Source: an uncultured Bacilli bacterium (GTDB lineage Bacteria > Bacillota_I > Bacilli_A > RF39 > UBA660). Taken from it: a stretch of DNA of 20,275 bases. Position numbers and translations under genes: made by a program. Below, in pieces: positions 3,004 through 20,275 of the stretch (the stretch's first letter is position 1; every line of letters starts with the position of its first letter). The stretch is from the NCBI GenBank assembly GCA_910586635.1, contig CAJUJA010000019.1, positions 1 through 20,275 on the forward strand, written 5' to 3'. The notes beneath the pieces were generated by a model. It had not been told where the DNA came from. It saw nothing but the letters and a program-made list of their open reading frames with translations, and made no database searches.

Positions 3004-3441
3004 ATGGAAGAAAAATTTGAATTATTAGAACAAGTATATCATGATGCATCTATGGGATCTTATACAATAGAAAAATTATTAGAACAGTTAAAGGAAAAAG
3101 ATAATAAAATTAAGGCATATCTAGAAGAGGTATTGAAAGAATATCAACAATATCAAGAAGAAGCTGGAGAAATTTTAAAAGAGAATAATATAGAGCCAGA
3201 TAATCCTGGATGGATGTCTAAAATGGGATCAGCAATGGGGATTAGTAAAGAAGTAAAGGAAGATAATAGTGACTCAGCAATAGCTGATATGATGATTAAG
3301 GGTGTATCTACAGGTTCTATTGAAATTGAAAAAAAATTAAAAGAGTATGAACAAGATATTGATAAGGAACATAAGAAATTGGCAAGAAATTATTTGAAAT
3401 TTCAACAAAAAGCGATCCAACACTTAAAAGAATATTTATAA
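3004..3441 (+). CDS. Hypothetical helical (coiled-coil / helix-bundle-like) protein
   Basis: 145-aa ORF with a strong AGGAGG RBS 7 nt upstream. K/E-rich helical composition; I do not recognise a catalytic motif. Confidence 0.7.
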   Translation: MEEKFELLEQVYHDASMGSYTIEKLLEQLKEKDNKIKAYLEEVLKEYQQYQEEAGEILKENNIEPDNPGWMSKMGSAMGISKEVKEDNSDSAIADMMIKGVSTGSIEIEKKLKEYEQDIDKEHKKLARNYLKFQQKAIQHLKEYL

Positions 3442-3537: not shown

Positions 3538-4125
3538 ATGGTAGAGCAAGTTAGTAGAAATAATAATTTAAAAATACCAAAGGAGATTGAAGTGGTAGTA
3601 AAAAATACCAATTCTATAGAAGATGAACTTTCATCCATAGAAGCCGTTGCAACAGCAAATGACCAAAAGTTCCAAAAGAATAGGATCAAAAAAAAATTAG
3701 AGGATTCTAATAAGGATACAGAGGTCATATCACAAATACCTACCAATGCCAATGACTTAATGGTAATAACAGTAGTGAAAAAATTAGGTGCTTATATTAT
3801 TGCAGTAACAGAAAAATCACCAAAAAAATTTAGAGGAGTTTTTGTTGTAAGAATGCAGAATTACTGTCTAGATACTTTAGAAAATCTGTTAGAGGCAAAC
3901 TTTATTAGAATGGATAGTTTAGAAAATAAAAATAAAAGAGCAGAGTTTCAAAAACAAGCCATCATAAAATTAAAATTATTAGGATATATTTCTATGTTAG
4001 CAGAAATATCTGGATGTATTTTAAAAAGACAATATAAGCAAATATCTATACAAGTAGCAGAATCAATTAATTTAATTACAGCTTGGAAAAAAAGTGATGA
4101 TGCTAGATGGAATAATAAAAAATAG
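3538..4125 (+). CDS. avd: DGR accessory variability determinant (Avd-like four-helix-bundle protein) with N-terminal extension
   Basis: The C-terminal ~120 aa (MVITVVKKLGAYIIAVTEKSPKKFRGVFVVRMQNYCLDTLENLLEANFI...INLITAWKKSD) resemble the four-helix-bundle/Avd family, including the basic SPKKFR segment and terminal aW+K. The gene sits directly upstream of TR and RT. The first ~74 aa are an extra acidic/basic extension. An internal ATG at 3760 has no RBS. Confidence 0.7.
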   Translation: MVEQVSRNNNLKIPKEIEVVVKNTNSIEDELSSIEAVATANDQKFQKNRIKKKLEDSNKDTEVISQIPTNANDLMVITVVKKLGAYIIAVTEKSPKKFRGVFVVRMQNYCLDTLENLLEANFIRMDSLENKNKRAEFQKQAIIKLKLLGYISMLAEISGCILKRQYKQISIQVAESINLITAWKKSDDARWNNKK

Positions 4126-4477
4126 GATTTTAAGTCGAAAGACTTTTAATTAAGGGAAAAATCAATTTTTCCTGAATCCCACTGTTTGCGGCTCTTCGCC
4201 CGCGTCGTTAACTAAAATGGTAATAGTAACAACAACAATGTTAATAACCGAAATGGTGGGATTCGCGTCGATTCACTTTTGAAGAGATTCATAAGGAATC
4301 TAAAAAACGAATGTGAGAATTCTATTCTAAGTAGAATAGTACAGAATTTAAAGTGAAGGGATTTTTCTCTTTTCTAACCGCTTAAAGTGCGGTGGAAGAA
4401 CTAGAACACTTACACTTTCCAACGAGAATTTCTTTTTGGATGTTATCAGAGGTGTTCTTTTATTTGGAGGATTATAA
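4126..4477 (+). ncRNA. DGR template RNA region (leader hairpins, TR, structured spacer before RT)
   Basis: 352 nt with no ORF. Stem-loops read from the sequence: 4132-4145 (AAGTC-GAAA-GACTT), 4155-4172 (GGAAAAA-tcaa-TTTTTCC), 4285-4301 (AGATTC-ataag-GAATCT), 4322-4339 (CTATTCT-aagt-AGAATAG), 4377-4393 (ACCGC-ttaaagt-GCGGT). There is also long-range AGAACAC (4403-4409) / GTGTTCT (4452-4458) pairing. Transcript ends are not determinable from sequence. Confidence 0.5.
4197..4276 (+). repeat. DGR template repeat (TR)
   Basis: Aligns without gaps to 5763-5842 (offset 1566). It contains ten AAY codons in the VR reading frame, is GC-rich relative to its surroundings, and has the identical 3' block GGTGGGATTCGCGTCG (4255-4270). 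Confidence 0.9.
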
Positions 4478-5500
4478 ATGTTAGAGGATATATTTTCATT
4501 TGAAAATTTATATGAGGCACATAAGAATTGTAGAAAATCAAAACAGCATAAGGGAGAAGTTGTAAGATTTGAAGTTTCCCTAGCTACTAATTTAGAAAAG
4601 ATAAGAAAAGGGATCGTTACACATAAATATAAAATGGGTAAATATAGAATGTTTCTAATTTATGAACCTAAAAAAAGAGTAATAGAAGCTCCCTGTTATC
4701 GAGATAGAATTGTTATCAGATGTTTTTGTGAACAGGTATTAAAACCTAAAATAGAGAAAAAACTTATTTATGATAATGCAGCATGTAGAAAGGGAAAGGG
4801 AACCCATTTTTCTATTAATCGATTAGAAAAATTTCTTAAAAGAGAGTACTTAAAAAGTCATAATAATAATAATATATACTTTTTAAAGTGTGATATTAGT
4901 AAATATTTTCCTAGTATTGATCATAGTATTTTACTTAATTTATTAAAAAAAATAGAGTTTAGTGATGAGGAAATAGAATTTATAGAATTATTAGTAAAAG
5001 CTGTGCCAAGTAAACAAGGGCTTCCACTAGGAAATCAGTCTAGTCAGTGGTTTGCCCTACTATATTTAAACAAGATAGATAGACTAATTAAGGAAAAGTT
5101 AAGAATTAAAGGTTATATTAGATATATGGATGATATGATTTTAATTAGTCGGGATAAAAACTATTTAAGATATTGCTTAGAACAAATTAAAAAGGTATGT
5201 AAGAATGAACTACATCTTTTATTAAATCAAAAAACGCAAATTGGTAAAGTGAAAGACGGAATTGACTTTTTAGGATATCGACATATATTAGATCAAAATG
5301 GAAAAGTAATTAGAAAGTTAAGGGCCAGTTCTAAGATAAGATTAAAAAGACATCTAAAGTTTTTAAAAAAATTAAGAGAAAGCGAAATAGTGGATGATCA
5401 ATATGTTGATATAAGAAAAAATGCTTATTATGAGTATTTAAAGAATACTAAGGAAAGTAAAAATTTCAAAGAACAAGTAAAACAAGTGTCAAGTGATTAA
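4478..5500 (+). CDS. DGR reverse transcriptase
   Basis: 340 aa with a GGAGG RBS at 4466-4470. Catalytic YMDD at 5123-5134 (IRYMDDMILIS). LGNQSSQ at 5027-5047 matches the (I/L)GxxxSQ motif characteristic of DGR RTs. The compact size and the position directly after TR also fit. Confidence 0.9.
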   Translation: MLEDIFSFENLYEAHKNCRKSKQHKGEVVRFEVSLATNLEKIRKGIVTHKYKMGKYRMFLIYEPKKRVIEAPCYRDRIVIRCFCEQVLKPKIEKKLIYDNAACRKGKGTHFSINRLEKFLKREYLKSHNNNNIYFLKCDISKYFPSIDHSILLNLLKKIEFSDEEIEFIELLVKAVPSKQGLPLGNQSSQWFALLYLNKIDRLIKEKLRIKGYIRYMDDMILISRDKNYLRYCLEQIKKVCKNELHLLLNQKTQIGKVKDGIDFLGYRHILDQNGKVIRKLRASSKIRLKRHLKFLKKLRESEIVDDQYVDIRKNAYYEYLKNTKESKNFKEQVKQVSSD

Positions 5501-5541
5501 CGATTTTATTTCCAAAAGTTGGTATTAATGGTATATTATAA

Positions 5542-7512
5542 ATGGTGATAAATATGGAATTAACTTTATTAGAAGAAGATCAAATTAAAGGAAATAATCG
5601 GTTAGAGATATTTGACAAAATAGGAACAAAGGCAGCAATAACAGACTATGCAATCGCATTAGGGGGATTGGTTGCTTCAAATTTTTTTACAAAAGGTGGA
5701 GAGAATCAGTTAGAATGCAGAACAGGATATTATTGGACTAAAACATGTGATGGGGATAATGACGCCCGCGTCGTTAACTATTATGGTAATAGGAGCCGCA
5801 GCGTTGTTGATCGCCGCTGTGGTGGGATTCGCGTCGCTTTACCGTACTCAGAAATCGCTTCAATCGCCTCGAACGAAGTGAGAGGGCCAGATGGAGTAGT
5901 GCAGTTAGAAGCCGGATACCTTCCAAAAAAAATAACTTCAAAACAATTACAAAAGGAACTAGAAAGAATCTATGATCGAAAAAAAAGATTTTTTCAGAAA
6001 GATACAACTTTAAAGAATATTAGTAAAAACTATACAGTAGATAGTAGAAATTATGATGAGTATTCAGAAAAATTTGATCCTGAGCAATTAGAAGAGGTCG
6101 AATTAACCAATGGAAAAAAGTATACAAGAGTAATTATAAAACCACGTTTTAATGAGAAAATGGTAACATTTTCAGATGGAGAAATTTATCAAGTAGGGGA
6201 TGCTGTTTGGATAGAAAAATGTCCTGTTACATGGTATAGAGACTTAAAAACAGATACCGTTTTTAATAAGGACATCATTGTATCAGGAATACCATTTAAT
6301 CATGAGAGAAATTATACAGGAAATTTTTCTAAAACAGATATGTATAAATATTTAAATACACATTTATTAAAGGATATGGAACTTATTTCTCCACAAATTA
6401 GTTATGATAGTACAAACACAGAAAAAATTGAGGATTCAGTAACAAAAGCGAAAAAGAAAAATCCTTTTGATTTTGACTTCAGTATGGTAGATGAGGAAGA
6501 TATTATAAGGGGTGCTCTTGAGAGTGATGTTCCTATTTACTTACATGGTAGATCCAGTGAAGGAAAAAGTTCTAGAGTAAAACAATATGATCCAGATTGT
6601 GAGATTGTATATTTAGTATCAGCATCTATTGATTCAATTAATGGAAAAAGTGTGTATAATCAGGATACAGGAGAAATGATAGATATCCCTCCAACTTGGT
6701 ATGAACGCCTAAAACAAAAGTGTGAAAATGAGCCAGATAAACTTCATATTGTATTCTTTGATGAATTAGCTAACGCAGACCGCTCGATTAGAAAAAGTAT
6801 TTTTAATATCATTCTTGACAAAGAAATCAATGGAAAATGGAAACTTCCTTCAAACGCAAGGATCGTAGGGGCCGGAAATGAAATAGAAGACTCTAGTGTT
6901 GCAGAGGAACTACCAGCACCTTTATTTAATCGCTTTGCTCATGTATATATTCATACTTCAGTAGAGTCATGGCTTTCGTGGGCTATTACAGATAAAGGAG
7001 AATATGAACGCCTAGATTATAAAAAAGAGGAATTAAAATATAAAATCCATCCTGCTATTTACTCTTTTATAGCATACCGTGGGGAAGATGTATTAAGAAG
7101 TAAATATGATGGAAAAAGACCTAATGCTGATCCGAGAAAATGGGAACTAGCCTCTAAAATATTAGAAAAAACGAATCAACCAGAAATGATTCGTGCTTTG
7201 GTTGGAGAAGAGATTGCTAGTGAATTTATAGGTTTTTGTAGTCAAGAAGTCATTACTTTAGACGATGTATTAAACGATGATTATACAGACTATGATTTAG
7301 AAATGGATATGTCACAAAAGGCTGCTACGGTATTAGCTCTTTCAAATGTAGATATGGAAAATATGGAAAAGGTAAGGAACTTTACCATAAAGTTAGGACC
7401 TTCTTCTTGTGCACAATTTGAGAATCTATGGGCACATGGAGATGCAAATAGATTAGAGCAAATAGAACTCCTTCATATGAAAGATGCTGAAAAAGGGGGT
7501 GTACGAAGATGA
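5542..7512 (+). CDS. DGR target protein: N-terminal VR-bearing (C-type-lectin-fold-like) domain fused to a MoxR/AAA_5-like AAA+ ATPase
   Basis: 656 aa. The VR encodes aa 75-100 (ARVVNYYGNRSRSVVDRRCGGIRVAL). Walker A GRSSEGKS (6547-6570), Walker B IVFFDE (6748-6765), IVGAGNE sensor-like motif, PLFNRF. No signal peptide or TM is apparent. The start could be ATG 5554 (GGTGA 5 nt upstream) instead of 5542. Confidence 0.85.
   Translation: MVINMELTLLEEDQIKGNNRLEIFDKIGTKAAITDYAIALGGLVASNFFTKGGENQLECRTGYYWTKTCDGDNDARVVNYYGNRSRSVVDRRCGGIRVALPYSEIASIASNEVRGPDGVVQLEAGYLPKKITSKQLQKELERIYDRKKRFFQKDTTLKNISKNYTVDSRNYDEYSEKFDPEQLEEVELTNGKKYTRVIIKPRFNEKMVTFSDGEIYQVGDAVWIEKCPVTWYRDLKTDTVFNKDIIVSGIPFNHERNYTGNFSKTDMYKYLNTHLLKDMELISPQISYDSTNTEKIEDSVTKAKKKNPFDFDFSMVDEEDIIRGALESDVPIYLHGRSSEGKSSRVKQYDPDCEIVYLVSASIDSINGKSVYNQDTGEMIDIPPTWYERLKQKCENEPDKLHIVFFDELANADRSIRKSIFNIILDKEINGKWKLPSNARIVGAGNEIEDSSVAEELPAPLFNRFAHVYIHTSVESWLSWAITDKGEYERLDYKKEELKYKIHPAIYSFIAYRGEDVLRSKYDGKRPNADPRKWELASKILEKTNQPEMIRALVGEEIASEFIGFCSQEVITLDDVLNDDYTDYDLEMDMSQKAATVLALSNVDMENMEKVRNFTIKLGPSSCAQFENLWAHGDANRLEQIELLHMKDAEKGGVRR
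5763..5842 (+). repeat. DGR variable repeat (VR)
   Basis: It is the counterpart of TR. Across TR 4197-4271, 15 of 26 TR adenines are substituted in VR while only 1 of 49 non-A positions differs (TR T4227 vs VR G5793). Homology ends after the shared GC-rich block; TR 4271/4274 differ from VR 5837/5840. Confidence 0.9.
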
Positions 7513-7913
7513 TGGATCATTCAAAACTGGAAATGTTAACAACCTATATGAAAGCAAATGTAGCACCTATTTTAGTTGAAAATATTTCTAAAGATGTATT
7601 TGTTGAACAGGCTGTAATTATTGAGGCAACAATTGATAAATCCCTTTTAAATGGACATTATGAAGGAATTGAGTATTTACCTCCTGAGTGGTTTTCTAAA
7701 TTAAAGGAAAAAAAACTTTTAGTTATTAATCAGCTATCCAGTATTCCAAAATCGGATCAGAAAAAATTTATAGAACTTCTAAAATATAAAAAAATTAGTA
7801 CCTTTGAATTACCAGAAAACTGTGTGATTGTTATTACCTGTGAGGACTCTAGGATGATAAATGAAGAAATATATTCATTAGTTGCTCATATAGGAGAACA
7901 AAATGGCAATTGA
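7509..7913 (+). CDS. Hypothetical 134-aa protein translationally coupled between the ATPase and the VWA protein
   Basis: ATGA overlap with the target-gene stop (7509-7512), GGGGGT RBS 8 nt upstream, and an 11-nt overlap with the next ORF. No motif recognised. Confidence 0.7.
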   Translation: MMDHSKLEMLTTYMKANVAPILVENISKDVFVEQAVIIEATIDKSLLNGHYEGIEYLPPEWFSKLKEKKLLVINQLSSIPKSDQKKFIELLKYKKISTFELPENCVIVITCEDSRMINEEIYSLVAHIGEQNGN

Positions 7914-9180
7914 TATTGATGATATTAAGAGAAGGTTATTAATTAAATATCCATCCTTCGGTAGCACGATGGCAAAGGTAAAATTTGTTGAAGACGATAC
8001 TTGTTATTATAAAGGAAAACCTACGGCAGCAACCGATAATGATGCCACATATTTTCATCCGGATTTTATTAATAGTCTGAATAAAAATCAACAAGTTACT
8101 ATTTTTGCACATGAAATTGCACATATCGTATTGGACCACATTGATAGAAGTGGGGGGAAAGATCCAGATATATGGAACGAAGCAACGGATGCTGTTATTA
8201 ATGCTAATTTAAAAAAAGATGGATTAGAAATGGTTCCAGGTATGATTGATAGAGAGGATGCCCTTTATTATGATGAGGAGACATTATATGAAAAACTATA
8301 TAATGAGAAAAAACAAAGTAAAGGTAGGAAGGGACAAAAACCCCATGCATCTCATGGAAAATGGAAAAATGCAGTAGATAATAGAAAAAAGAAAAATCAG
8401 AATTCTATGAATGAGAAGAATAAGGAAAATAAAAATCAAAGTTCTGCGAATGAGGAGAATAAAGAGAATAAGGAAAATTTTACAAACGCAAATGAGCTTT
8501 TTAAAAGTGCTCGAAAAGAAAGAGTAAATAATTTAAAAAAACTAAAGAAGCAGTTAATAGAAAAATCTATGCAGAGTCAATCGAAAGGAACTTCTCAAAA
8601 CCGAAATATAAATAATATTGGAAATGCAACTAAATTAGTAGATTGGAGGATTTTGCTTGGAGATACATGCAAAATAGATGCTGATTGGACTTATCAAAAT
8701 GCAACCATAGAATACGGAGTATTAACTCCACACATGGAGGATATAAAAACAGTAGAAGTGGAGATACTCTTAGATACAAGTGGCTCAGTAAATGAAAATA
8801 TGTTAAGAAATTTTTTGAAAGAGTGCATGGGGATTTTAAAACAAGCTAATATTAAAATAGGTTGCTTTGATGATAGGTTTTATGGATTTCACACGATTCA
8901 TTCAAGAGGACAATTGGAGGATGTTCGGTTAGAAGGTGGAGGAGGGACAGATTTTAATGTAGCTGTAAATGCCTTTACTAAAAATGCTGATTATAAAATT
9001 ATTTTTACAGATGGTTTAGCAAAAATGCCGAATATGGAGGTAAACGCAATTTGGATTGTTTACGGTGGAAAGGTAATTAGCCCAAAAGGAGGAAGGGTAA
9101 TTAATATTGATAATGAAGCATTAAGAAAATTGAATTGTGTACAAACATTTAATCATGAAGTTAGATATAGAGGTAAATAA
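7903..9180 (+). CDS. HExxH metallopeptidase-like N-domain + VWA domain protein (DUF2201-type MoxR partner)
   Basis: AGGAG RBS 6 nt upstream. FAHEIAHIVLDH with HEIAH at 8110-8124. K/N/E-rich low-complexity linker (about 8290-8640). C-terminal VWA with MIDAS-like DTSGS (8773-8787) and GGGTDF. This domain pair next to a MoxR-like ATPase is a known genomic association. Confidence 0.8.
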   Translation: MAIDIDDIKRRLLIKYPSFGSTMAKVKFVEDDTCYYKGKPTAATDNDATYFHPDFINSLNKNQQVTIFAHEIAHIVLDHIDRSGGKDPDIWNEATDAVINANLKKDGLEMVPGMIDREDALYYDEETLYEKLYNEKKQSKGRKGQKPHASHGKWKNAVDNRKKKNQNSMNEKNKENKNQSSANEENKENKENFTNANELFKSARKERVNNLKKLKKQLIEKSMQSQSKGTSQNRNINNIGNATKLVDWRILLGDTCKIDADWTYQNATIEYGVLTPHMEDIKTVEVEILLDTSGSVNENMLRNFLKECMGILKQANIKIGCFDDRFYGFHTIHSRGQLEDVRLEGGGGTDFNVAVNAFTKNADYKIIFTDGLAKMPNMEVNAIWIVYGGKVISPKGGRVINIDNEALRKLNCVQTFNHEVRYRGK

Positions 9181-9484: not shown

Positions 9485-9508
9485 ATTTAGTACGAGGGAG
9501 GTTTGAGA

Positions 9509-10183
9509 ATGTCTGAAATATATTCGGATGCTGATGATTGCCTTGATTTAGCAAGGTATCTAAAGACACAAATGGGGAGAAAAATTAGTTTTTATGGAAG
9601 CACATATCAAGAGGTAATAAGTGGATCTTACTTTTCTGACTTTGAAAGTAAATGTTGTCACGTTTATGGAGAGGGCTTAGCATTTTATTATAAATTTTGT
9701 AAAGAGGGATTTTTAAGAATTGGAATTGGTTCGTTTCCGTTACATAATAATTCTGTAGGGGAGAAATTAGCAGCTTTAAGTAGTTTTTATGAAGCATTGA
9801 GTGAGCAATATGGAGAACCGACTTTTTTTTATACAATAAAGGATGATGATGAGGGTACTTTATCCTTACAATGGTCCTTTGCTAATAAAGAAGAGGATAT
9901 CCAAAATTTAAGAAGCGGAAACTATTTTGACGATGGTGAAATAGATGAGCTGATTGTGATTGATGAACCAAGAACTCAAATGAATAGTTATGAATTAAAC
10001 GATACTACAAAAAAATTTAATGCAAACAAAATTGGCATTCCTTGTGGTTTGATCGATTTAGTTAATGAAAATATAGATGATTTTGTTAAATATAAAACTG
10101 GAAAAGAAATTGGTATCCCAGAAGGAACAAAAATTGATGGTGTTTCTGTAACATCATTTCAAAAGAAAATATCTTTGAAATGA
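9509..10183 (+). CDS. Hypothetical protein
   Basis: The ORF track starts at TTG 9503. ATG 9509 is preferred because GAGGGAGG (9494-9501) lies 7 nt upstream. No recognisable motif, signal peptide or TM. Confidence 0.7.
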   Translation: MSEIYSDADDCLDLARYLKTQMGRKISFYGSTYQEVISGSYFSDFESKCCHVYGEGLAFYYKFCKEGFLRIGIGSFPLHNNSVGEKLAALSSFYEALSEQYGEPTFFYTIKDDDEGTLSLQWSFANKEEDIQNLRSGNYFDDGEIDELIVIDEPRTQMNSYELNDTTKKFNANKIGIPCGLIDLVNENIDDFVKYKTGKEIGIPEGTKIDGVSVTSFQKKISLK

Positions 10184-10217
10184 ATAAAAAAATAATAATA
10201 TTAATAGGTGGTTCAAT

Positions 10218-10718
10218 ATGGAGTCTAAATTAGATAGTTTATTAAAAATAACAAGGGAAAATTATAAAAGGTTATTAGAAGGATATGAAAGACAGGTTAA
10301 AAATAATTTTGGTTTATCAGCAGAAAAAAAGGATGATATAGATAAATTATTTTCTAAGACAGGCGAAAATATATTATCAGAATGTTTAGAAAGATATAGT
10401 TTTAATGTAACTAGAAATTTAGGAAAAAAAACTAATTATTCTGTTGAAATACCAGCCATTGCGAAGAAAGATTTATCAGGAGCAGAAAAACAATACTTGT
10501 TATTCCTATTTTTAAATAAAATGGAAGAGTATTGTTTTGATGAAGTGGGTTTTCAGGGTGCTTCTATTATTAAAAAATATTGCTCAACTAGTAAATTAGA
10601 TCAGGATCTTATTATAGGAAAAAATCCAGATGTATTCTACTCTAGAGAATGTTACTTTTTGCATTTGAGTTTTTCTCCACATAGAACTTATTCAAAAAGA
10701 ATGATTAAAAGTAATTAA
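10218..10718 (+). CDS. Hypothetical protein
   Basis: 166-aa ORF with an AGGTGG RBS 6 nt upstream, 34 nt after the previous stop, so probably in the same operon. No motif recognised. Confidence 0.7.
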   Translation: MESKLDSLLKITRENYKRLLEGYERQVKNNFGLSAEKKDDIDKLFSKTGENILSECLERYSFNVTRNLGKKTNYSVEIPAIAKKDLSGAEKQYLLFLFLNKMEEYCFDEVGFQGASIIKKYCSTSKLDQDLIIGKNPDVFYSRECYFLHLSFSPHRTYSKRMIKSN

Positions 10719-10825
10719 TAATAAGAATAAAGAAAGTTTTTATAAAAAGATCAATCATCATAGAAACATTACTAGTTACATGATATAATATAATAAAGTA
10801 TTAGCAATTAAAGGAGTACATTAAA

Positions 10826-11216
10826 GTGAAGAGTATAGTATTATCTGGTAGTATGAAAGTAAAAGAGGAAATACTAAAAGTTGGGAAAGAATTAGAAAAA
10901 ATGGATTTTGTGTATTACTTCCAGATGAGTATATAAAAAAACAACCGAAAAAATTGCCTCTAGACAACATTTTAATCGAATTATAGATCCTGAGAATGAA
11001 ATTTTGTTAGTAGTAAATTCAAATCGAAATGGGATAGATAATTATATTGGAGCAAATTCATTTGCTGAAATAGCATTTGAATTTCAATTTAATAAGAATG
11101 TATATTTACTAAATGATATTTATGAGCCATTTAAAGATGAATTAATAGGTTGGAATATTAAAGTATTAAAAGGTGATTTATCCTGCTTAATAGATCAAGG
11201 AAATAAACATAATTAA
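10826..11216 (+). pseudogene. Frameshifted small Rossmann-like gene (tentatively nucleoside 2-deoxyribosyltransferase-like family)
   Basis: GTG 10826 with an AAGGAG RBS and an upstream TGaTATAAT. The reading frame continues sensibly only by shifting twice: VKSIVLSGSMKVKEEILKVGKELEK / GFCVLLPDEYIKK / KIASRQHFNRIIDPENEILLVVNSNRNGIDNYIGANSFAEIAFEF.... The shifts map to A-runs at 10896-10901 and at 10935-10941 or 10948-10953. The family assignment is a recollection-level guess. Confidence 0.55.
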
Positions 11217-11256
11217 TTATAAATACAGTTATATGAAATAACTAGGAGGAAATCTT

Positions 11257-12082
11257 ATGCTGATATATAAAAATACATTTGAAGATGAATCTGTAAAGGG
11301 GTATAATTACCCAATAGAAGATCAGTATTATGCGGAAGATACTATTGCAGTTATAGCAGATGGAATAACCAGGGATCCAGATGGAGTAACAGATATATCA
11401 GAGTATAGCTTTTTAGAGTTATTACAAAGATATCCTAGACCAAGTGGAGGAGAACTAGCAGCTAAAGAAATTATTCATACATTTAGAAATAGTAGTAGTC
11501 GTTCATTAAAAGAAAGATTGATTGAGTGTAATAGAGCAGTAAAAAAGTTGAATAATCAGTATATTAAAAAGTGTGATTACTTACAAAATGATTATTATGG
11601 GGCAGTAGCGTCTTGCTGTCAAATAAGGGATGAATGGTTAGAATATGCATATATTTGTGATTGTGGAATTATTGTCTATAATAGTAAAGGTAAAGTTAAA
11701 TTTCAAACAGAAGATGACAAAAAAATTTATAGTGATCCCTATATCAATAAAATTAGAATTCCATGGGAAAAAAGTGAGGCTAGAGTAATTGTAAGAAAGG
11801 ACTTTAGAAATAATGTAAATAACATTCGAGATGGAAGATGGAGCTATTACAGGAGAGTGTAATGCTGAAAGTTTTATTCGTTGTGGTAAGGTAAAATTAG
11901 ATAGAGAAGATATTATTCTAACCTATAGTGATGGTTTTACAGACTTGTTACAGGAAGAAGAGTTTATCAGTCAAATTCTCCATTTTGAAAAAAGTGAGTT
12001 TGAACAATTTATAACAGAAATTTCAAAGAAAGATCCTAAAAAGTATGGAAGAGAAAAAACTTTAGTTATTATGAAAAAATAA
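11257..12082 (+). pseudogene. PP2C-like protein phosphatase gene disrupted by a 7-bp tandem duplication
   Basis: AGGAGG RBS. ORFs 11257..11862 and 11831..12082 join into one frame if one copy of AGATGGA (11829-11835 / 11836-11842) is removed, giving ...NNIRDGAITGECNAESF.... PP2C-like motifs are AVIADGITRD and LTYSDGFTDLL. Confidence 0.6.
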
Positions 12083-12215
12083 AAATTTAGTGAAGTTAAG
12101 TAATATAACCTTACCTTTTTGTCTCTTTTATTATATATTGAATTCAACAACAAAAAGAGATAGTATTATAATAAAACTTATGTTATAATATTTACCAATA
12201 CAAAGAAGGGATATT

Positions 12216-14390
12216 ATGAGTGATATACAAACATCGTTTTATGAATCTATTTACTCTAACTTCAGACAATTAGACGAAAATGATTTAAATGTACAGAAAA
12301 AATATCAACAATATTTAGATAGATTGGTAGATGTTTTTTTAATGCTAGAATATAAAAAAGATAGAAAAAATAATGCTGTTTATACGATTGATCAAGTTCA
12401 CATGTATTGTATGAGTTTCTTTTGGGAGGTAAGATCGCAATGTCAGAAACAACAATTACAAATACTAGCTAACAAAATCGCATATATTACCAAAAAAAAA
12501 GATGAAATTCCTTATTATCTTAAGAAAGTAGAAAAATTATATGAAACTTATCAATCCTTAGGAAAATGTAATGATGCAAAATTTTATAATGAAATTTTAA
12601 ATAAACAACAAAATTTTTATCTTTCAAAAACAAAAAAGGAAATAATTATGGAATTAACAGATAGGTTTCCATTAACAGAAAAAGCAAAGCAAAGGTTAAT
12701 TAATAGGGTTAAAATTCCAATTATTATAGATAGAATAAAAAAAGGAGAGTATGCTTCCTTTTGTAGTACGAAGGAAGAATTGAAGAAACAATTAAAAAAA
12801 ATACACACAAGTCTTTCGAATAAAAGAGCTTTGAAAAAGACGTATTTTTTTTCAAAAGAGGATTATGAGTTTTTGGATAATCATTTTTTGATAGGAAACT
12901 TATCTAAGGATGTATTAGAAAAAAGGTTCCCGTTTTTTGATAAAGGAAAGATAAAGATGATAATAAATGTTTACTATCGTATATTGTTACCCTATCTAGA
13001 TAATATTTCATTAGATAGAAAGGATATTCCTAGAGTTAATATTTCATTAAATTATAAACAGTTAAAACTTTATAATAAACGGCAGCTAGAACAAAATATA
13101 AAAGATTTGGAAAGTTCCCTATCTCCTAATCAAAAAGAAAAAATATTACAGGAACCAGATTTTAAAGAATTAGTAAAATTATTACCTTTGGTTAATCAAT
13201 CTAAAATTTTTAAAATGGATACTTTTCTTAAAATAGCTTTAAATATCTCTAAAATAAAAGAATACTTACTGTTAAAAGAAGAAATGAATCTTAAGCTGAT
13301 TTTAAATCAGTTACCAAAGGTGATAGAGCTAGCAGATGCTTACAGTCAATCTAATGGAAGAACGTGTGCTATTTTAGGAGAAACCCTTATTAGTAGAATA
13401 ATTGAAGATAATGTCACTAGTTGTAAGCCAGAGGATTATCTAACGAGTTATTTAAAAATGTTAAATCAACCTTATAGTAAAATTCCACCTATTTGCGGAA
13501 AATTTCAAGAATATAGTTATGAAAGTGGTAATAACAGTGTAGATCGCTTATTGATTGGCAAAAATAGTTACAGAAGTTGTCTAGGACCTGCAGGAGCAGG
13601 AGAAAAGGCCTATGAACTGGCACTTTCCAGTGTAGATGCTGATGTGCTAATTATAAAAAAAGATAATAGTGAGTTTATAGGGAGAACTCTTTTATTTCGT
13701 CAAGGAAATTTCGTTATATTGGCACCCGTTATGGGAAGGAGAGGGCTTAATAAGATGCTATATGATGAGGAATTTTTGATGCAAATTGGAAATCAAATGA
13801 TAGAAAAAGCAATATTACAACAAGATCGTTTAGATTACGTGTTTTTAACGAAATTTGGACTTCTGAAAAAGTTGGACTTTTTCTATTTAGCTGATACTAA
13901 ATTAGGTAAAGGTTTGCCTCATTGTGATATAGAACCATTGGCATATCTTATAGCATCAAAGGAATTATTGAAAAATCCTGACAAGAAAGACTTCTTAAAG
14001 GAAGACATTTATCTAGATTTAGATGCAAAAGATCAAGTGCTTTATTTTAAAGAAAGACCTCCAGTAAATAAAAAAGAGGCTAACTATATCAAAGATATTC
14101 AAAAGATTAGAGGATTAAAAATGGATAATTCATCTAATGCTGAAATTAACATTTCGAAAGATGAAGATTATGATGAGGTTTATGTCGGACAAGATTGGTA
14201 TATTGCAATAAAGGATAAAAAAATTGTTGAGACCTGTGTTTATAAAGTGGAAGATCCAAGGCAGGATGCAGAAATAACTATGATTGTTGATAATCTTGTG
14301 GAACAGGGAATGATGAATAGTTCAGGCGAATATGGAAAACATTCAAAAGTCAGGATGAAAGAGTATTCAAGTAATAATAATTTAACTTAA
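12216..14390 (+). CDS. Large hypothetical protein (724 aa)
   Basis: Long uninterrupted ORF with a GAAGGGA RBS. N-terminal half is K/E/L-rich and helical. C-terminal half has a conserved-looking block SCLGPAGAGEKAYELALSSVDADVLIIKKDNSEFIGRTLLFRQGNFVILAPVMG. No family recognised, no TM or signal peptide. Confidence 0.75.
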   Translation: MSDIQTSFYESIYSNFRQLDENDLNVQKKYQQYLDRLVDVFLMLEYKKDRKNNAVYTIDQVHMYCMSFFWEVRSQCQKQQLQILANKIAYITKKKDEIPYYLKKVEKLYETYQSLGKCNDAKFYNEILNKQQNFYLSKTKKEIIMELTDRFPLTEKAKQRLINRVKIPIIIDRIKKGEYASFCSTKEELKKQLKKIHTSLSNKRALKKTYFFSKEDYEFLDNHFLIGNLSKDVLEKRFPFFDKGKIKMIINVYYRILLPYLDNISLDRKDIPRVNISLNYKQLKLYNKRQLEQNIKDLESSLSPNQKEKILQEPDFKELVKLLPLVNQSKIFKMDTFLKIALNISKIKEYLLLKEEMNLKLILNQLPKVIELADAYSQSNGRTCAILGETLISRIIEDNVTSCKPEDYLTSYLKMLNQPYSKIPPICGKFQEYSYESGNNSVDRLLIGKNSYRSCLGPAGAGEKAYELALSSVDADVLIIKKDNSEFIGRTLLFRQGNFVILAPVMGRRGLNKMLYDEEFLMQIGNQMIEKAILQQDRLDYVFLTKFGLLKKLDFFYLADTKLGKGLPHCDIEPLAYLIASKELLKNPDKKDFLKEDIYLDLDAKDQVLYFKERPPVNKKEANYIKDIQKIRGLKMDNSSNAEINISKDEDYDEVYVGQDWYIAIKDKKIVETCVYKVEDPRQDAEITMIVDNLVEQGMMNSSGEYGKHSKVRMKEYSSNNNLT

Positions 14391-15589: not shown

Positions 15590-18500
15590 ATGTTGAACAT
15601 AAAAAAGATTAGAATCTTTAAAATATTAGGTATAACGATATGTATTCTATCTATAACCGTAGGACTATGCTTCTTATGTAATAACATATTGATGAAAGAA
15701 AAGACTATGGCAAATGTAGAGACTATAGGTTACTATAATTCCAGAAGTAGTGATAGTTCTGCAGATTATAGACAAGTTTATTTAAGTGAATTGGAACCAA
15801 CTGAAAAACGTATTGGGTATGGGGAATTAGTAAATGATGCTGATTTATCCGGGAATCCAATTACTATGTTAATTGAAGGGAACTATTTCTCTTTTAAAAA
15901 AGGAGTATTTGCTCATGCCAATTCAACCTTGGTTTACGATTTAACAGATTATAGTGATTATAACTACTTCGTTACATTTATAGGATTGAATAAAACATCG
16001 ACTCAAGGCAATGGTGTAACTTATCATTTTTATACATCAAACAATAGAAATGAATGGACTGAATTTAAAGATCCGATTGTAAAAAAGCCTAAAGAGGCCG
16101 GAAGTTTTGTACAGATTCCTTTGGAAAACGTCAATTATTTGAAGTTAGTCGCAGACTCTAATGGATCAAATGCATCAGATCACTCTGTGTATGCTGATGC
16201 TAAATTGGTAACTGAAGTAAACGGGAATTTTATTTTAGATTCGATTGAAGATATAGATAAACAAATAAATAATATCTATAATGGTGGGGCAGCGATTAAT
16301 GGCGAATTAGAATATAGTATTTTAAAAAGAGAACTTGTCAAAAGAGTAGGTCAATATACACTAAACTCTTTCTATAATGAAAGTGAAGATAATAAAGCCA
16401 CTATAGACTGGCTTTTAAGTAACAAAGAGGTATTAAATTACTATATTTTAGGTGGAACCCCAGATGGAAATAGTTACTATAATTCTTTAACTCAATTATC
16501 TAGATTATATAAAAAATATAAAGAAGACTTTAAAATACAAGAAACTACGATATATGGTACAGTTTTAGGTGATTTATACACTCGTATGGCTATTGCTTTA
16601 TCACTTACTCACTCCCAAAGAGTTGGTCTGTGGATGCAATCTAGTATAAAAGAGAATCAGTCGGATGCCGTAGTTCGTTATCAGATATTCAAAGAATTAC
16701 ATAAAAACAACAAGTTTAAGGCAACTGAAGCGATGAATATGACAAAATGGTTTGAGCAATATAATGTTGAAAATATGAGGTTTGTAATGAATTCTAATAT
16801 CGATGATGAATCTATATTATGGTTAAACGAATATGTTCAAAGTAAAATTGATGAAAACCCAGGAAGAGCTTGGTCATATTTGACACCACATCCATATATT
16901 GCTTATGTTTGGCCAAACTATGCAAATCCAGTGTATTATGATGAGGAAAACTATGACTACTTTAATGAACTGTTTTCCGTTAAAGGAAAAAAGATGTATG
17001 ATTATGGTATCACTCGTGGGACAAATGATCATAAGGTATATAAACAATGGATGAATTTCAGAAATAAATTTGGTACTGGAGCAGTCTGTGGAGGAATTTC
17101 TAAATCGGGTGCTGTTATTCGTGCAACCCATGGTATTGCTGCAACAGTGATTGGACAACCAGGACATGCAGCACTTCTATATTATACAGCCGATGCAGAA
17201 GGTAAAGGATATTGGAGACTTGATAATGATGTCAGTGGGTGGACTCTATCGGAAAAAGGTGAAAGAATGCTTCTAGGATGGGGTAATGGTAGCTATGCAA
17301 AAGGTTCTTATCAGGTTGTCTATATGGCCTTAGCACAAGAAGCTTTAAATGATTATGAAAACTTCGAAAAAGCAGAAAAACTCATAATGTTAGCAAGGAC
17401 ATTTGGCGACAATCCCACAAAACAAGAGGAACTACTTAGAAAAGCTTTAGAAGTTCAATCTATTAATTTGGATGCATGGCTTGATTTAATAACTCTTTAT
17501 AATAATAGTGATAGTAAATCTGAAGGAGATTACTATGCTTTATCAGAAGAATTAGCAAATAGTTTAAAATATTTTCCACTTCCAATGTACAATTTAACTA
17601 ACTTGATCAAACCTAAGATGGTAAGTGTTGAAAACTCATTCAAATTTACATTACTACAAACTAGAACTTTAAATCAGGCAAAAAGTACGCCAAACAATAC
17701 TACAGACAGTTATACAGTTTATCAACCAGATTTGACTAGAATCGAGGCGAATTTCTTATTAGGAAAAGTTGATAGTTCTCTTGCTACATTCTCTTTTGAT
17801 GGAGTTGACGCTGAAAAAATTGTTCTATCCGAACGCTTTAATGGAAGTGGAGTGCGCTTTGATTATAGCTTAGATGGAAAAAACACCTGGAACGAAGTAT
17901 CATTCACTGGAGAAGAGGAACACAAATTACAATTGACCAAAGATCAAATTAATAATATCACCTCGGAAAATGATATCTATATCCATATTGTTGGAACAAG
18001 CTATGAAGAAAAAAATTTATATAAAATAGATATTACTGAAGGAAGTTTGCCTGCTGAATTGTTTGCAAATGACTTGGAAAACAGGGTGATAGGAGTCAAT
18101 TTGAATACTGAATGGCGTTATAATGAAAATGATTTTTGGACTTCATACAACGTTGCTTCCCCTGACTTGACAGGAAATAAGACAGTCCAAGTAAGACAGG
18201 CGGCCACTGGTACAGCACTTGCAAGCTCCCCATCACCAATGTATACATTTACAAAAGATGATCAACCCAATACAAGAAAATACATCCCTGTATCTCATTT
18301 GACTATTGAGACAGTTTCCACAGAGGCGGTTAACAATGGTGGTGGTGCTGTAAAAGCCATTGATGGGAACTATAATACGAGATATCATTCTGCCTGGAAT
18401 GGAACTGATACTGAACGTTTTATAATTATAAAACTTGATGAATCTGTTATTTTATCAGCAGTTGAGTTCGTCCCAGCGGGCGGAGGAAACGGTAAGATAT

Positions 18501-20275
18501 ACGATGGTACCGTTTATGGAAGTATGGATGGTAAGAATTGGGAAAGGTTATCGAGTTTGAAGAATCTAACATACACTAATCAGGCTAATACAGTAGACGA
18601 TGCTATTATAAATACAAAAAGTTTTGAAATAACTGGGGAAAAAGAGGTTCAGTATGTTAAAATTGTGGCGGATCGTACTAATGGTAATTGGTTTGCAGCA
18701 AGAGCATTTAATCTTTATCAAGATTTAACTAAAAATCCACATCCTACTGCTGGAATTGCTTACAGTACTACAGAACTTACAAACGGCAAAGTTGTCGCAA
18801 GGCTTATAAACCCTAGCAGGGAAATAATTATTACAAATAATGAGGGATCCGATACCTATACATTTAGTGAAAATGGCGAGTTTACTTTCGAATTCAAAGA
18901 TAAAAACGGTGTAACAGGATCCGCAACTGCTAAAGTTGATTGGATTGATAAGAATATACCTGATGCAAATATCGACTACAAATTAGATAGCAATCATAAA
19001 TTGAGCATTTCTTTAGATGATATTAGTGAAGATGTATATCTGTTAGATAAGAATGACAAACCTATCAACTTTATTGAGGTTAAAAACAAAAAGGTGACAA
19101 GAGTCTCTTATTTGAATTCTGAAAATGAAATAACTAAAACTGTATATCTCGATGAAAATGGATGTATTACAAAAATCGTCTATATTAACACAAATAAAAA
19201 TATCCCAGCAGTTGCAACCTATACCACTATAATAGCAAATGGAGCTGTAACCAGTGAAGAGTATTATGATGAGGTAGGAGGCAAAGTAGAAGTTTCCGAT
19301 GCAGATAAGGAAGCATTAAGAGGGTTACAACAGGCTATAACAGATCCTCTTGAATATACATTTGAAAACAGTGGAAGTCATGAATTTAAATTACTTGACA
19401 AAGCTAAAAACATTGCCTATAAGAGTGTTAAAGTTGACTATGATGAGGATAATGATAGGATTATAGCAAGTGATATATCCTATGATATAACCCACTTAAC
19501 TAATAAAGATGTTGTGGCTACCATCAAAGCATATGTATTCGAAGATGGGAAAAAGAAGAACGCAGCAATCACCTCAGGAGGGGATTCTTATACATTTAAT
19601 ACAAATGGAAAGTTTACATTCCAGTATAAAGGTAGTAATGATTCAGATGACGATGTAAAGAATCATACTGCTAAAGTTACTTGGATTGATAAGGTTGTTC
19701 CAACGGCTAAAGTTAAATACACTACAAGAGAAAATGGAGAAGTCATTGCAACTTTAGTCAACGAAAGTGAAAAGATAATTATAACCAATAATGGGTTCAG
19801 TAGGGAACGTAAATTCAATAAAAATGGAGAATTTACATTTATATTTGAAGATGAGGCTGGAAATGTAGGCAGAACTATTGCTAAAGTAAACTCTATACAA
19901 GAAAAAAAACCTAACAATTCATCTACTACTGGAGGCAATTCTTCTGTAAATCATTCTAAACCAAGTAAATCATCTAAGCCTAATAATAAACATAACCCTA
20001 CTACTAGTAACAATCAAAGCTCAAATATAAGTGAATCTAGCGATAAAACAACTTCCGAGGAGACTACTAAATCTAATAATAAAGAATCTAAAAATGCAGT
20101 AGATAAAAAGAACGTCGTTAGAGATATCAATAACAAGAATAATATGACTGAAAATCAAAGGTCAACCCGAGAGGATAAAAAAATGGATAATATAATAATC
20201 AAAGTCGTCGTAGTATTTATGGTTATTACATTGGGAGTGTTAACAGTAGGCTTCTATTTTAAAAAGAAAAACTAG
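15590..20275 (+). CDS. Large multidomain cell-surface protein (NPCBM-like, Cys/His/Asp core, F5/8 type C discoidin, Ig-like repeats, S/T/N-rich stalk, C-terminal TM anchor)
   Basis: AAGGAG RBS 9 nt upstream. N-terminal hydrophobic anchor (aa 8-33). NPCBM-like segment about 15773-16210 (GYGELVNDADL...KGVFAHANS...). Possible transglutaminase/papain-like triad C500 (17087-17089), H526 (17165-17167) and D in WRLDNDVSGW. Discoidin about 18284-18724 (AIDGNYNTRYHSAWNG...). Three related ~70-aa repeats (..TNN.GSDTYTF..NGEFTFEF.D..GN...A.V.WIDK..P). Low-complexity stalk. Terminal IIIKVVVVFMVITLGVLTVGFYFKKKN and stop at 20273-20275. Confidence 0.9.
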   Translation: MLNIKKIRIFKILGITICILSITVGLCFLCNNILMKEKTMANVETIGYYNSRSSDSSADYRQVYLSELEPTEKRIGYGELVNDADLSGNPITMLIEGNYFSFKKGVFAHANSTLVYDLTDYSDYNYFVTFIGLNKTSTQGNGVTYHFYTSNNRNEWTEFKDPIVKKPKEAGSFVQIPLENVNYLKLVADSNGSNASDHSVYADAKLVTEVNGNFILDSIEDIDKQINNIYNGGAAINGELEYSILKRELVKRVGQYTLNSFYNESEDNKATIDWLLSNKEVLNYYILGGTPDGNSYYNSLTQLSRLYKKYKEDFKIQETTIYGTVLGDLYTRMAIALSLTHSQRVGLWMQSSIKENQSDAVVRYQIFKELHKNNKFKATEAMNMTKWFEQYNVENMRFVMNSNIDDESILWLNEYVQSKIDENPGRAWSYLTPHPYIAYVWPNYANPVYYDEENYDYFNELFSVKGKKMYDYGITRGTNDHKVYKQWMNFRNKFGTGAVCGGISKSGAVIRATHGIAATVIGQPGHAALLYYTADAEGKGYWRLDNDVSGWTLSEKGERMLLGWGNGSYAKGSYQVVYMALAQEALNDYENFEKAEKLIMLARTFGDNPTKQEELLRKALEVQSINLDAWLDLITLYNNSDSKSEGDYYALSEELANSLKYFPLPMYNLTNLIKPKMVSVENSFKFTLLQTRTLNQAKSTPNNTTDSYTVYQPDLTRIEANFLLGKVDSSLATFSFDGVDAEKIVLSERFNGSGVRFDYSLDGKNTWNEVSFTGEEEHKLQLTKDQINNITSENDIYIHIVGTSYEEKNLYKIDITEGSLPAELFANDLENRVIGVNLNTEWRYNENDFWTSYNVASPDLTGNKTVQVRQAATGTALASSPSPMYTFTKDDQPNTRKYIPVSHLTIETVSTEAVNNGGGAVKAIDGNYNTRYHSAWNGTDTERFIIIKLDESVILSAVEFVPAGGGNGKIYDGTVYGSMDGKNWERLSSLKNLTYTNQANTVDDAIINTKSFEITGEKEVQYVKIVADRTNGNWFAARAFNLYQDLTKNPHPTAGIAYSTTELTNGKVVARLINPSREIIITNNEGSDTYTFSENGEFTFEFKDKNGVTGSATAKVDWIDKNIPDANIDYKLDSNHKLSISLDDISEDVYLLDKNDKPINFIEVKNKKVTRVSYLNSENEITKTVYLDENGCITKIVYINTNKNIPAVATYTTIIANGAVTSEEYYDEVGGKVEVSDADKEALRGLQQAITDPLEYTFENSGSHEFKLLDKAKNIAYKSVKVDYDEDNDRIIASDISYDITHLTNKDVVATIKAYVFEDGKKKNAAITSGGDSYTFNTNGKFTFQYKGSNDSDDDVKNHTAKVTWIDKVVPTAKVKYTTRENGEVIATLVNESEKIIITNNGFSRERKFNKNGEFTFIFEDEAGNVGRTIAKVNSIQEKKPNNSSTTGGNSSVNHSKPSKSSKPNNKHNPTTSNNQSSNISESSDKTTSEETTKSNNKESKNAVDKKNVVRDINNKNNMTENQRSTREDKKMDNIIIKVVVVFMVITLGVLTVGFYFKKKN

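Follow-up and report, generated by a model that had tools for sequence, protein, structure and literature searches.

A diversity-generating retroelement of uncultured gut Bacilli very probably diversifies a circularly permuted DUF6273 module fused to an AAA+ ATPase

Diversity-generating retroelements (DGRs) with C-lectin-like targets of the DUF6273 family (PF19789) are known from gut phages (PMC10743442, PMC11792537), in which the targets, tentaclins and small Mtd-like proteins, are virion proteins, and the variable repeat (VR) of published DUF6273 targets lies at the C-terminal end (PMC11792537). Tentaclins owe their N-terminal VR to a canonical domain being put first, not to permutation, and Ig-like domains follow their variable domain. 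The ternary MoxR-vWA (VMAP/iSTAND) systems of multicellular cyanobacteria and proteobacteria (Kaur et al., 2020, PMC7159879; Dore et al., 2024, PMC10907252) couple a DGR-varied C-lectin-type domain to a MoxR-like AAA+ ATPase and a vWA protein; the variable domain is of the FGE/FGS type, always C-terminal and usually carried on the vWA protein, and the third component is a VMAP or a peptidase. In Mtd of Bordetella phage BPP-1 and TvpA of Treponema, which are extracellular or virion-borne, the VR forms the extreme C-terminus of the whole protein. Here we describe a DGR cassette on a stretch of 20,275 nt (hereafter the window; contig CAJUJA010000019.1 of assembly GCA_910586635.1, positions 1 to 20,275, forward strand) from an uncultured mouse-gut Bacilli bacterium (Bacillota_I; Bacilli_A; RF39; UBA660). 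Its target gene carries the VR near the N-terminus, and we consider it highly probable that this gene joins a permuted DUF6273 module to an AAA+ ATPase and is diversified by an active DGR.

The target resembles the phage DUF6273 proteins in having a homologous domain, a VR on the same C-terminal hairpin and GVRPAL strand, and an AAY-rich template repeat (TR). It differs in that the domain appears to be circularly permuted, with the C-terminal half first, in that the protein is cellular and predicted to be cytoplasmic, and in that an AAA+ ATPase follows the variable domain; no Ig or Fn3 domains were found in the window target. With the MoxR-vWA ternary systems the cassette shares the coupling of a DGR-varied, putatively C-lectin-type domain to a vWA protein and to an AAA+ ATPase, which here may be MoxR-like, a predicted intracellular location of all components and the common occurrence of multiple paralogous targets. 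However, its variable domain is a putatively permuted DUF6273, N-terminal and located on the ATPase itself, its vWA protein is a DUF2201 protein with an HExxH domain and no C-terminal FGS domain, its additional component is a 134-aa protein without matches, and the hosts of the family are small-genome gut Bacilli and Clostridia. Variable residues interleaved with an invariant scaffold, a G-x-R-hydrophobic end strand and adenine mutagenesis are shared with Mtd and TvpA, although neither sequence nor Foldseek comparison gave a similarity of the window module to these proteins. NorQ-NorD and related MoxR-vWA chaperones (PDB 9qh6-9qhg series) have a similar AAA+ core (Foldseek E ~1e-6, TM ~0.46 of target) and a vWA partner with a MIDAS-type motif, but no variable domain, DGR or HExxH domain, and they serve a dedicated client enzyme (NO reductase). 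N-terminal VRs (in tentaclins), DUF6273 DGR targets and DGR-MoxR-vWA associations are already known. The circular permutation, the direct fusion of a lectin module to an AAA+ ATPase with a DUF2201 partner and the wide presence in gut Firmicutes appear to be new, and a literature search found no report of a DGR with a permuted target.

The whole DGR cassette, consisting of Avd, TR, reverse transcriptase (RT) and target open reading frame (ORF), lies within the window with all parts on the + strand (Table 1). Comparison of TR and VR showed 63/80 identical positions and 17 mismatches, 15 of which were at TR adenines (hypergeometric P=2.4e-7). Of the two non-adenine mismatches, T4227>G5793 was the only one inside the VR; 4/4 metagenomic runs examined read T at this position, and G5793 is private to the window's allele. 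The other, C4274>T5840, is at the 3' end; the related locus L002 likewise has a TR/VR difference there, possibly an IMH/IMH*-like arrangement (IMH, initiation of mutagenic homing). A GC-rich block, GGTGGGATTCGCGTCG, is the same in TR and VR, and the TR/VR-specific differences after it recur in L002. A hairpin at 5855-5881, downstream of the VR, was not better than those of shuffled sequences (z=+2.5). The G+C content was 56% in the VR and 42% in the TR, compared with ~30% in the window.

Relative to the TR, codons 80, 81, 84-88, 90, 91, 92 (silent), 93, 99 and 100 of the target were altered. An earlier note on this DNA had placed the VR at residues 75-100 of 656, about 1.67 kb before the stop codon, and had listed residues 80, 81, 84-88, 90, 91, 93 and 99 as variable; the location was confirmed (1,670 nt from the end of the VR to the stop codon), and all of these residues were altered, with codons 92 and 100 to be added. 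TR adenines also occur in codons 79, 83 and 96, and codons 79 and 83 were variable in other samples. Across 93 modules, positions 79-81, 83-88, 90, 91 and 93 were hypervariable, with entropies of 2.4-3.3 bits, whereas in RT-linked loci V78, G82, V89, R92, G95, R97 and L100 were invariant or nearly so (0 to 0.6 bits).

The window's locus was found in many mouse-gut metagenomes. Metagenome contigs matching positions 5300-6300 had flanks identical to the window, and the assemblies split at 5724-5847 into alternative VR unitigs, two of them in one run. Within the repeat, 18/19 polymorphic positions were TR adenines, and many of the alternative VR letters were not A, which rules out TR sequence wrongly placed at the VR. 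Since adenine-restricted VR alleles stand between identical flanks, the DGR is active, or was until very recently.

A scan of species-representative genomes gave 78 loci, all in uncultured gut metagenome-assembled genomes (MAGs) with the labels Bacilli, Clostridia, Tenericutes or Erysipelotrichaceae; the hosts were humans, mice, rabbits, chickens and ruminants. The usual layout was Avd, TR, RT, one to three paralogs of the module-ATPase fusion, a small ORF and a DUF2201 gene. A full-length search with the target yielded >2,104 relatives; the ATPase fusion was considered as an artefact or a peculiarity of the window and this was rejected, the fusion being the norm in the family. In at least 30 loci a TR/VR pair of 77-82 nt, particular to the locus, was present at module residues ~69-95, and its mismatches were nearly all at adenines; in 5 loci one TR matched two paralogous targets. 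Some 22 loci (for example L022, L031, L057, L070 and L084) lacked an RT although 6.9 kb or more of their upstream sequence was available. They had the same hypervariable columns, the mean entropy of the VR columns being 3.16 bits in RT-less loci, 2.82 in RT-linked loci and about 1.0-1.2 elsewhere. The RT-less loci are probably targeted in trans, now or formerly.

The TR translated in the VR frame reads ARVVN*NGNSNNNNVNNRNGGIRVDS. It is AAY-rich and contains an in-frame TAA at 4213-4215, which is adenine-mutable and pairs with VR codon 80 (5779-5781). An in-frame stop at an adenine-mutable TR position was seen in 9 of ~31 related TRs, twice in two of them, and the loci named are L008, L024, L027, L043, L048, L052, L059 and L066. 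In L008, L024 and L043 the VR keeps the stop, so that the target ORF is cut at residue ~85-99; in the remaining stop-bearing loci the VR codon is now Y, W, L, C or R. These cases suggest that TR stops allow retrohoming to turn the target OFF or ON, and that TAA/TAG codons bring aromatic residues to the repertoire at the cost of nonsense alleles.

Several related loci departed from the usual arrangement. In L028, L030, L031 and L081, the VR regions of tandem module-ATPase paralogs agreed at 84/84 positions, contrary to what one expects of DGR targets; a recent duplication, gene conversion or a collapsed assembly may be the reason. A standalone module of 341 aa with a coiled-coil tail (P0001; L001, 8001-9026), 69% identical to the window module, stands alone in a capsule/cell-wall gene cluster. 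Neither an RT nor an ATPase or DUF2201 gene occurs within 8 kb of it, the locus has no TR, and this module is a candidate for targeting by a remote DGR (in trans). In some relatives (L002/L003, 8001-8840 and 8824-10215) module and ATPase are separate ORFs overlapping by 17 nt, and either fusion and fission have both happened or there is a frameshift between the ORFs. A chimera of 176 aa (P0048), present on 14 contigs, unites residues 1-116 of the RT with residues ~22-53 of the target and the C-terminal ~28 residues of the DUF2201 protein, joined at the short shared peptides RLE and KGG; it has the appearance of a cassette that collapsed and decayed in related Bacilli MAGs.

The conserved module comprised the first ~285 residues of the target and was identified in 47 close relatives and in 2,682 representative clusters at E<=1e-3, with the VR-type motif always at residues ~70-100 of the module homologs. 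The elements of the N-half are, in order, an FLLS-like strand, a TDYAxALGG helix, a YYWTK strand, the VR hairpin and a GGIRVAL strand. Those of the C-half are a GYLPKK strand (family consensus EYGEYPQ), GKKYxRV, PVTWYRD (consensus PIKWLVD) and a helix that corresponds to the 'xWxxSxLRxWLN' helix. In its native sequence, the window module had no match in Pfam, PHROGs, NCBIfam, PADLOC or a PDB sequence search, and the window protein did not match PF19789 at the gathering score in native, halved, doubled or permuted form. Weak Pfam matches of the N-part were obtained in relatives (Fib_succ_major, profile 120-167/187; DUF6273, profile 81-168/172), several of which have a precomputed PF19789 assignment, and the N-half of relative P0115 reached 25.6 bits against the PF19789 cut-off of 23.5 (profile 116-168/172). 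When modules were doubled, the DUF6273 match crossed the junction in P0062 (222-368, profile 15-168) and in P0115 (199-356, profile 29-168); the extension past the junction adds almost no score and is weak evidence if taken alone. Permuted and native modules were not discriminated by the number of Pfam DUF6273 matches (2/44 versus 3/44), which is uninformative because HMMER detects the N-half only and sums partial matches whatever their order. Counting of Pfam matches was replaced by profile-profile comparison with HHalign.

Family profiles built from 121 members were compared with a canonical DUF6273 profile of 238 columns, the alignment of which comprised an ORF on phage contig MT835514 (L004) and four database proteins with precomputed PF19789; the DUF6273-like probe with which the phage ORF was found served only to retrieve real sequences and is absent from all alignments. 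The N-half profile aligned with canonical columns 167-233 (Prob 96.1, E 2.9e-9, score 58.3) and the C-half profile with columns 37-111 (Prob 94.3, E 9.9e-8, score 52.7). With the C-half placed before the N-half, a single colinear alignment spanned columns 37-233 (Prob 98.3, E 1.6e-14, score 99.9), whereas in native order the N-half part alone aligned, to the canonical C-terminal part (Prob 95.2, E 2.6e-8, score 61.0), whole-domain colinearity being obtained only with the halves swapped. Under relaxed settings positions 4-258 of the permuted profile aligned end to end with canonical positions 2-238. No column-shuffled control scored above 23.5 and no reversed profile above 14.9; for the C-half profile alone, the shuffles did not exceed 19.6. 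In the swapped order the family motif EYGEYPQ was paired with canonical FGSYPQ, GKKYxRV with GxKYxRL, PIKWLVD with the IxW strand (consensus e.I.W.vl), the TxIKxFMDxYF helix with MRTWLNxxF, ITDFAILLGG with TDYAxAxG, YWTK with WWTS and GxRPxL with GVRPV.

Judged from these profiles, the module is a circular permutant of DUF6273 and no canonical member of the family. The VR residues ARVV...GGIRVAL align with the last ~30 canonical columns, and because the VR-bearing half is the old C-terminal half, the VR still occupies what was originally the C-terminal end of the lectin domain. The chain now begins and ends between the WLN-type helix and the FLLS-type strand, and ~15 residues join GGIRVAL to the old N-terminal strand. 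Relatives with tandem modules, having two matched stretches in 600-1,000 aa, fit the usual duplication route to permutation. The earlier note had suspected a permuted or split arrangement from an N-terminal pattern resembling DUF1566 or DUF6273 and a following segment resembling the part that normally precedes it. Both the DUF6273 resemblance and the suspected order are supported by the HHalign comparisons, and DUF1566 was never matched; the window protein itself reached no Pfam threshold.

In an AlphaFold2 (AF2) model of residues 1-313 the module formed one compact body, with residues 1-282 rigid (predicted template modelling score, pTM, 0.84; predicted local distance difference test, pLDDT, 85.8). 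Foldseek with the module model, also put forward in the earlier note, matched no solved C-lectin-fold structure (Mtd, TvpA, FGE, CTLDs), and the assignment of a C-lectin fold therefore rests on homology. DSSP assigned a hairpin to residues 75-78/84-86 and the last strand to residues 98-101 of the models; the hairpin and the alternation of hypervariable and invariant columns are indirect signs in keeping with exposure of the VR residues.

Table 1 Position of the DGR cassette and its features in the window
Feature	Position	Strand	Basis
Avd accessory protein, 195 aa	3538..4125	+	phrog_3206 'Avd protein of DGR' E=3.6e-14
Template repeat (TR), non-coding, between avd and RT	4197..4276	+	Repeat comparison with VR
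DGR reverse transcriptase, 340 aa	4478..5500	+	RVT_1 E=5.9e-20; LGNQSSQ motif
Target gene, putatively permuted DUF6273 module + AAA+ ATPase, 656 aa	5542..7512	+	Translation; NCBI identical protein P0200
Module N-half (aa 5-110), putative ancestral C-terminal half of DUF6273	5554..5871	+	HHalign; Pfam matches in relatives
Variable repeat (VR), codons 75-101	5763..5842	+	80-nt repeat of TR 4197-4276
Module C-half (aa 116-285), putative ancestral N-terminal half of DUF6273	5887..6396	+	HHalign
Disordered linker, aa 283-303	6388..6450	+	pLDDT 26-35 in both models
AAA+ ATPase, putatively MoxR/NorQ-like, + helical C-terminal region, aa ~305-650	6454..7491	+	phrog_1297 ATPase E=1.6e-43
Small conserved ORF, 134 aa, overlaps both neighbours	7509..7913	+	Homologs at same place
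DUF2201_N (zincin-like) + DUF2201 vWA-like protein	7903..9180	+	PF13203 E=2.6e-28, PF09967 E=3e-14

The product of ORF 3538-4125 also matched the NCBIfam Avd model NF033474 (E=4e-5, under the cut-off) and the bAvd Pfam model (E=0.012), its Avd-like four-helix part being residues ~76-190; residues 1-70 (3538-3750) form an N-terminal extension of ~70 residues before the four-helix-bundle part. Avd homologs of conserved length (193-201 aa) stand 5' of the RT in many related loci. The RT, 200 nt downstream of the TR, has the motif LGNQSSQ, which fits the DGR-type [ILV]GxxxSQ (PMC3521204). The real start of the target is probably M5 (ATG at 5554), preferred because relatives begin there; a GGTGA motif lies 6 nt 5' of this ATG, and this start would shift the numbering by 4.

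The module is followed by the linker and by an ATPase with a Walker A motif, GRSSEGKS (6547-6570), and a Walker B motif, IVFFDE (6748-6765); pTM was 0.84 for the module alone and 0.55 for the full-length model (pLDDT 84.9). In Foldseek the ATPase resembled MCM subunits (E 1e-7) as well as NorQ, including NorQ-NorD(VWA) complexes (E 6.6e-7, TM 0.44-0.48 of target), and Pfam AAA_5 gave a weak match only (E=0.23). PDB sequence and profile searches with the module, the ATPase and the DUF2201 protein gave nothing beyond weak NtrC/NifA matches. The 134-aa ORF had no Pfam, PHROG, PADLOC or NCBIfam match, and a homolog of 120-136 aa lies between the ATPase fusion and the DUF2201 gene in most related loci. 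The DUF2201 gene is the conserved last gene of the cassette; its product matched phrog_1314 (E=1.2e-59) and contains HEIAH (8110-8124) and a MIDAS-type DTSGS (8773-8787). No PADLOC model matched any cassette part. No signal peptides or membrane segments were found in any cassette product, and the products are therefore predicted to be cytoplasmic.

Housekeeping and surface genes flank the cassette. Upstream of it are ftsE, ftsX and a PcsB-like M23 peptidase gene (124-2928), and downstream (15590-20275) an ORF of >1,561 aa with NPCBM and F5/8 type C domains runs off the window. Several ORFs in 9503-14390 (226, 166, 201, 83 and 724 aa) had no Pfam match, the first two, which were compared with PHROGs as well, matched nothing there either, and no homolog of them follows the cassette in L002. 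The ORF orf145 (3004-3441) was rejected as a cassette member, being absent from L002.

The DGR (Avd, TR and RT) transfers a copy of the TR, mutated at adenines, to codons 79-93 and also 96, 99 and 100, and rewrites ~13 residues between fixed scaffold residues. The probable permutation frees the C-terminus of the module, where a flexible linker of ~20 residues connects the AAA+ ATPase. The variable lectin face may bind an intracellular ligand, with binding controlling the AAA+ ring, and the ring may cooperate with the vWA/zincin-like partner or act upon it, much as NorQ engages NorD through its vWA domain. We infer, tentatively, that the cassette as a whole is a cytoplasmic DGR-diversified sensor or conflict system, which, by analogy, would make it an equivalent in Firmicutes of the MoxR-vWA conflict systems linked to DGRs. 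A more specific and rather doubtful version is an anticipatory intracellular immune receptor of gut Firmicutes with a binding face under continual DGR revision, in which a captured invader protein would make the motor drive the vWA/zincin effector and the TAA/TAG stops of the TR would turn every retrohoming event into a chance ON/OFF switch.

Two alternatives concern the target and the activity of the DGR. Residues 1-105 might be an autonomous mini-lectin with a C-terminal VR, followed by an unrelated beta-rich domain, so that no permutation would be involved: HMMER/Pfam finds the N-half only, this half has strand-helix-helix-strand elements and ends in the usual GxRPAL strand, and Foldseek assigns no fold to either part. 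Against this, the C-half profile by itself matches the canonical DUF6273 N-terminal part well above its shuffled controls, the permuted order nearly adds both scores in one colinear alignment, the AF2 model forms one rigid body and the halves always occur together across the representative clusters, making an unpermuted module very improbable. That the VR/TR pair is a relic of an inactive DGR we regard as scarcely credible. The non-adenine mismatch inside the VR and the in-frame TAA of the TR would agree with such decay, but RT, Avd and target are all intact, alternative VR unitigs occur between identical flanks within single mouse-gut runs, the 18 polymorphic positions other than G5793 are all TR adenines with many alternative letters that are not A, and G5793 itself is confined to the window's allele.

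Other alternatives to a cellular sensor or conflict system concern the origin and task of the cassette. It could be derived from a phage or mobile element, with a replication-associated or anti-defence role, the variable lectin guiding the ATPase and its vWA partner towards a protein, of the host or of a competitor, that keeps changing. The phage families matched by the ATPase and the DUF2201 protein, the differing chromosomal sites (after ftsEX and the PcsB-like gene in the window, between an SLT gene and glmS in L002) and the existence of orphan copies and decayed chimeras would be in line with this origin. However, neither in the window nor in L002 is the cassette flanked by phage structural, integrase or lysis genes, its neighbours being housekeeping genes, and tblastn of the module, its permuted form included, against 50,697 phage records and 72,556 plasmids found nothing, so that we judge such an origin unlikely. 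It is still less probable that the ATPase and vWA proteins form a MoxR-type maturation chaperone like NorQ/NorD or CbbQ/CbbO for which the lectin module merely picks the client. The likeness of the ATPase to NorQ and NorQ-NorD complexes and the intact MIDAS-type motif in the vWA domain favour a chaperone, but a housekeeping chaperone has no evident need of a hypermutating client-binding face, the presence of several paralogous targets in one locus and the fast turnover of alleles in nature are against it, no candidate client enzyme is conserved beside the cassette, and the partner has an HExxH peptidase-like domain.

The window's locus indicates that the rule of a C-terminal VR is a rule of domain topology and not of gene position: since the lectin domain appears to be permuted, its VR-bearing end comes first and a C-terminal ATPase can be carried. 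With this family, DGR-diversified systems of the MoxR/vWA type now reach abundant uncultured small-genome gut Bacilli and Clostridia, in the form of a large unannotated family of >2,000 fusion proteins and 2,682 module clusters for which there is no Pfam, NCBIfam or PADLOC model. The system, being compact, predicted to be cytoplasmic and active in the mouse gut now or until very recently, offers a tractable case for studying the purpose of cellular, non-phage DGRs, and the module is a candidate scaffold for evolving intracellular binders.

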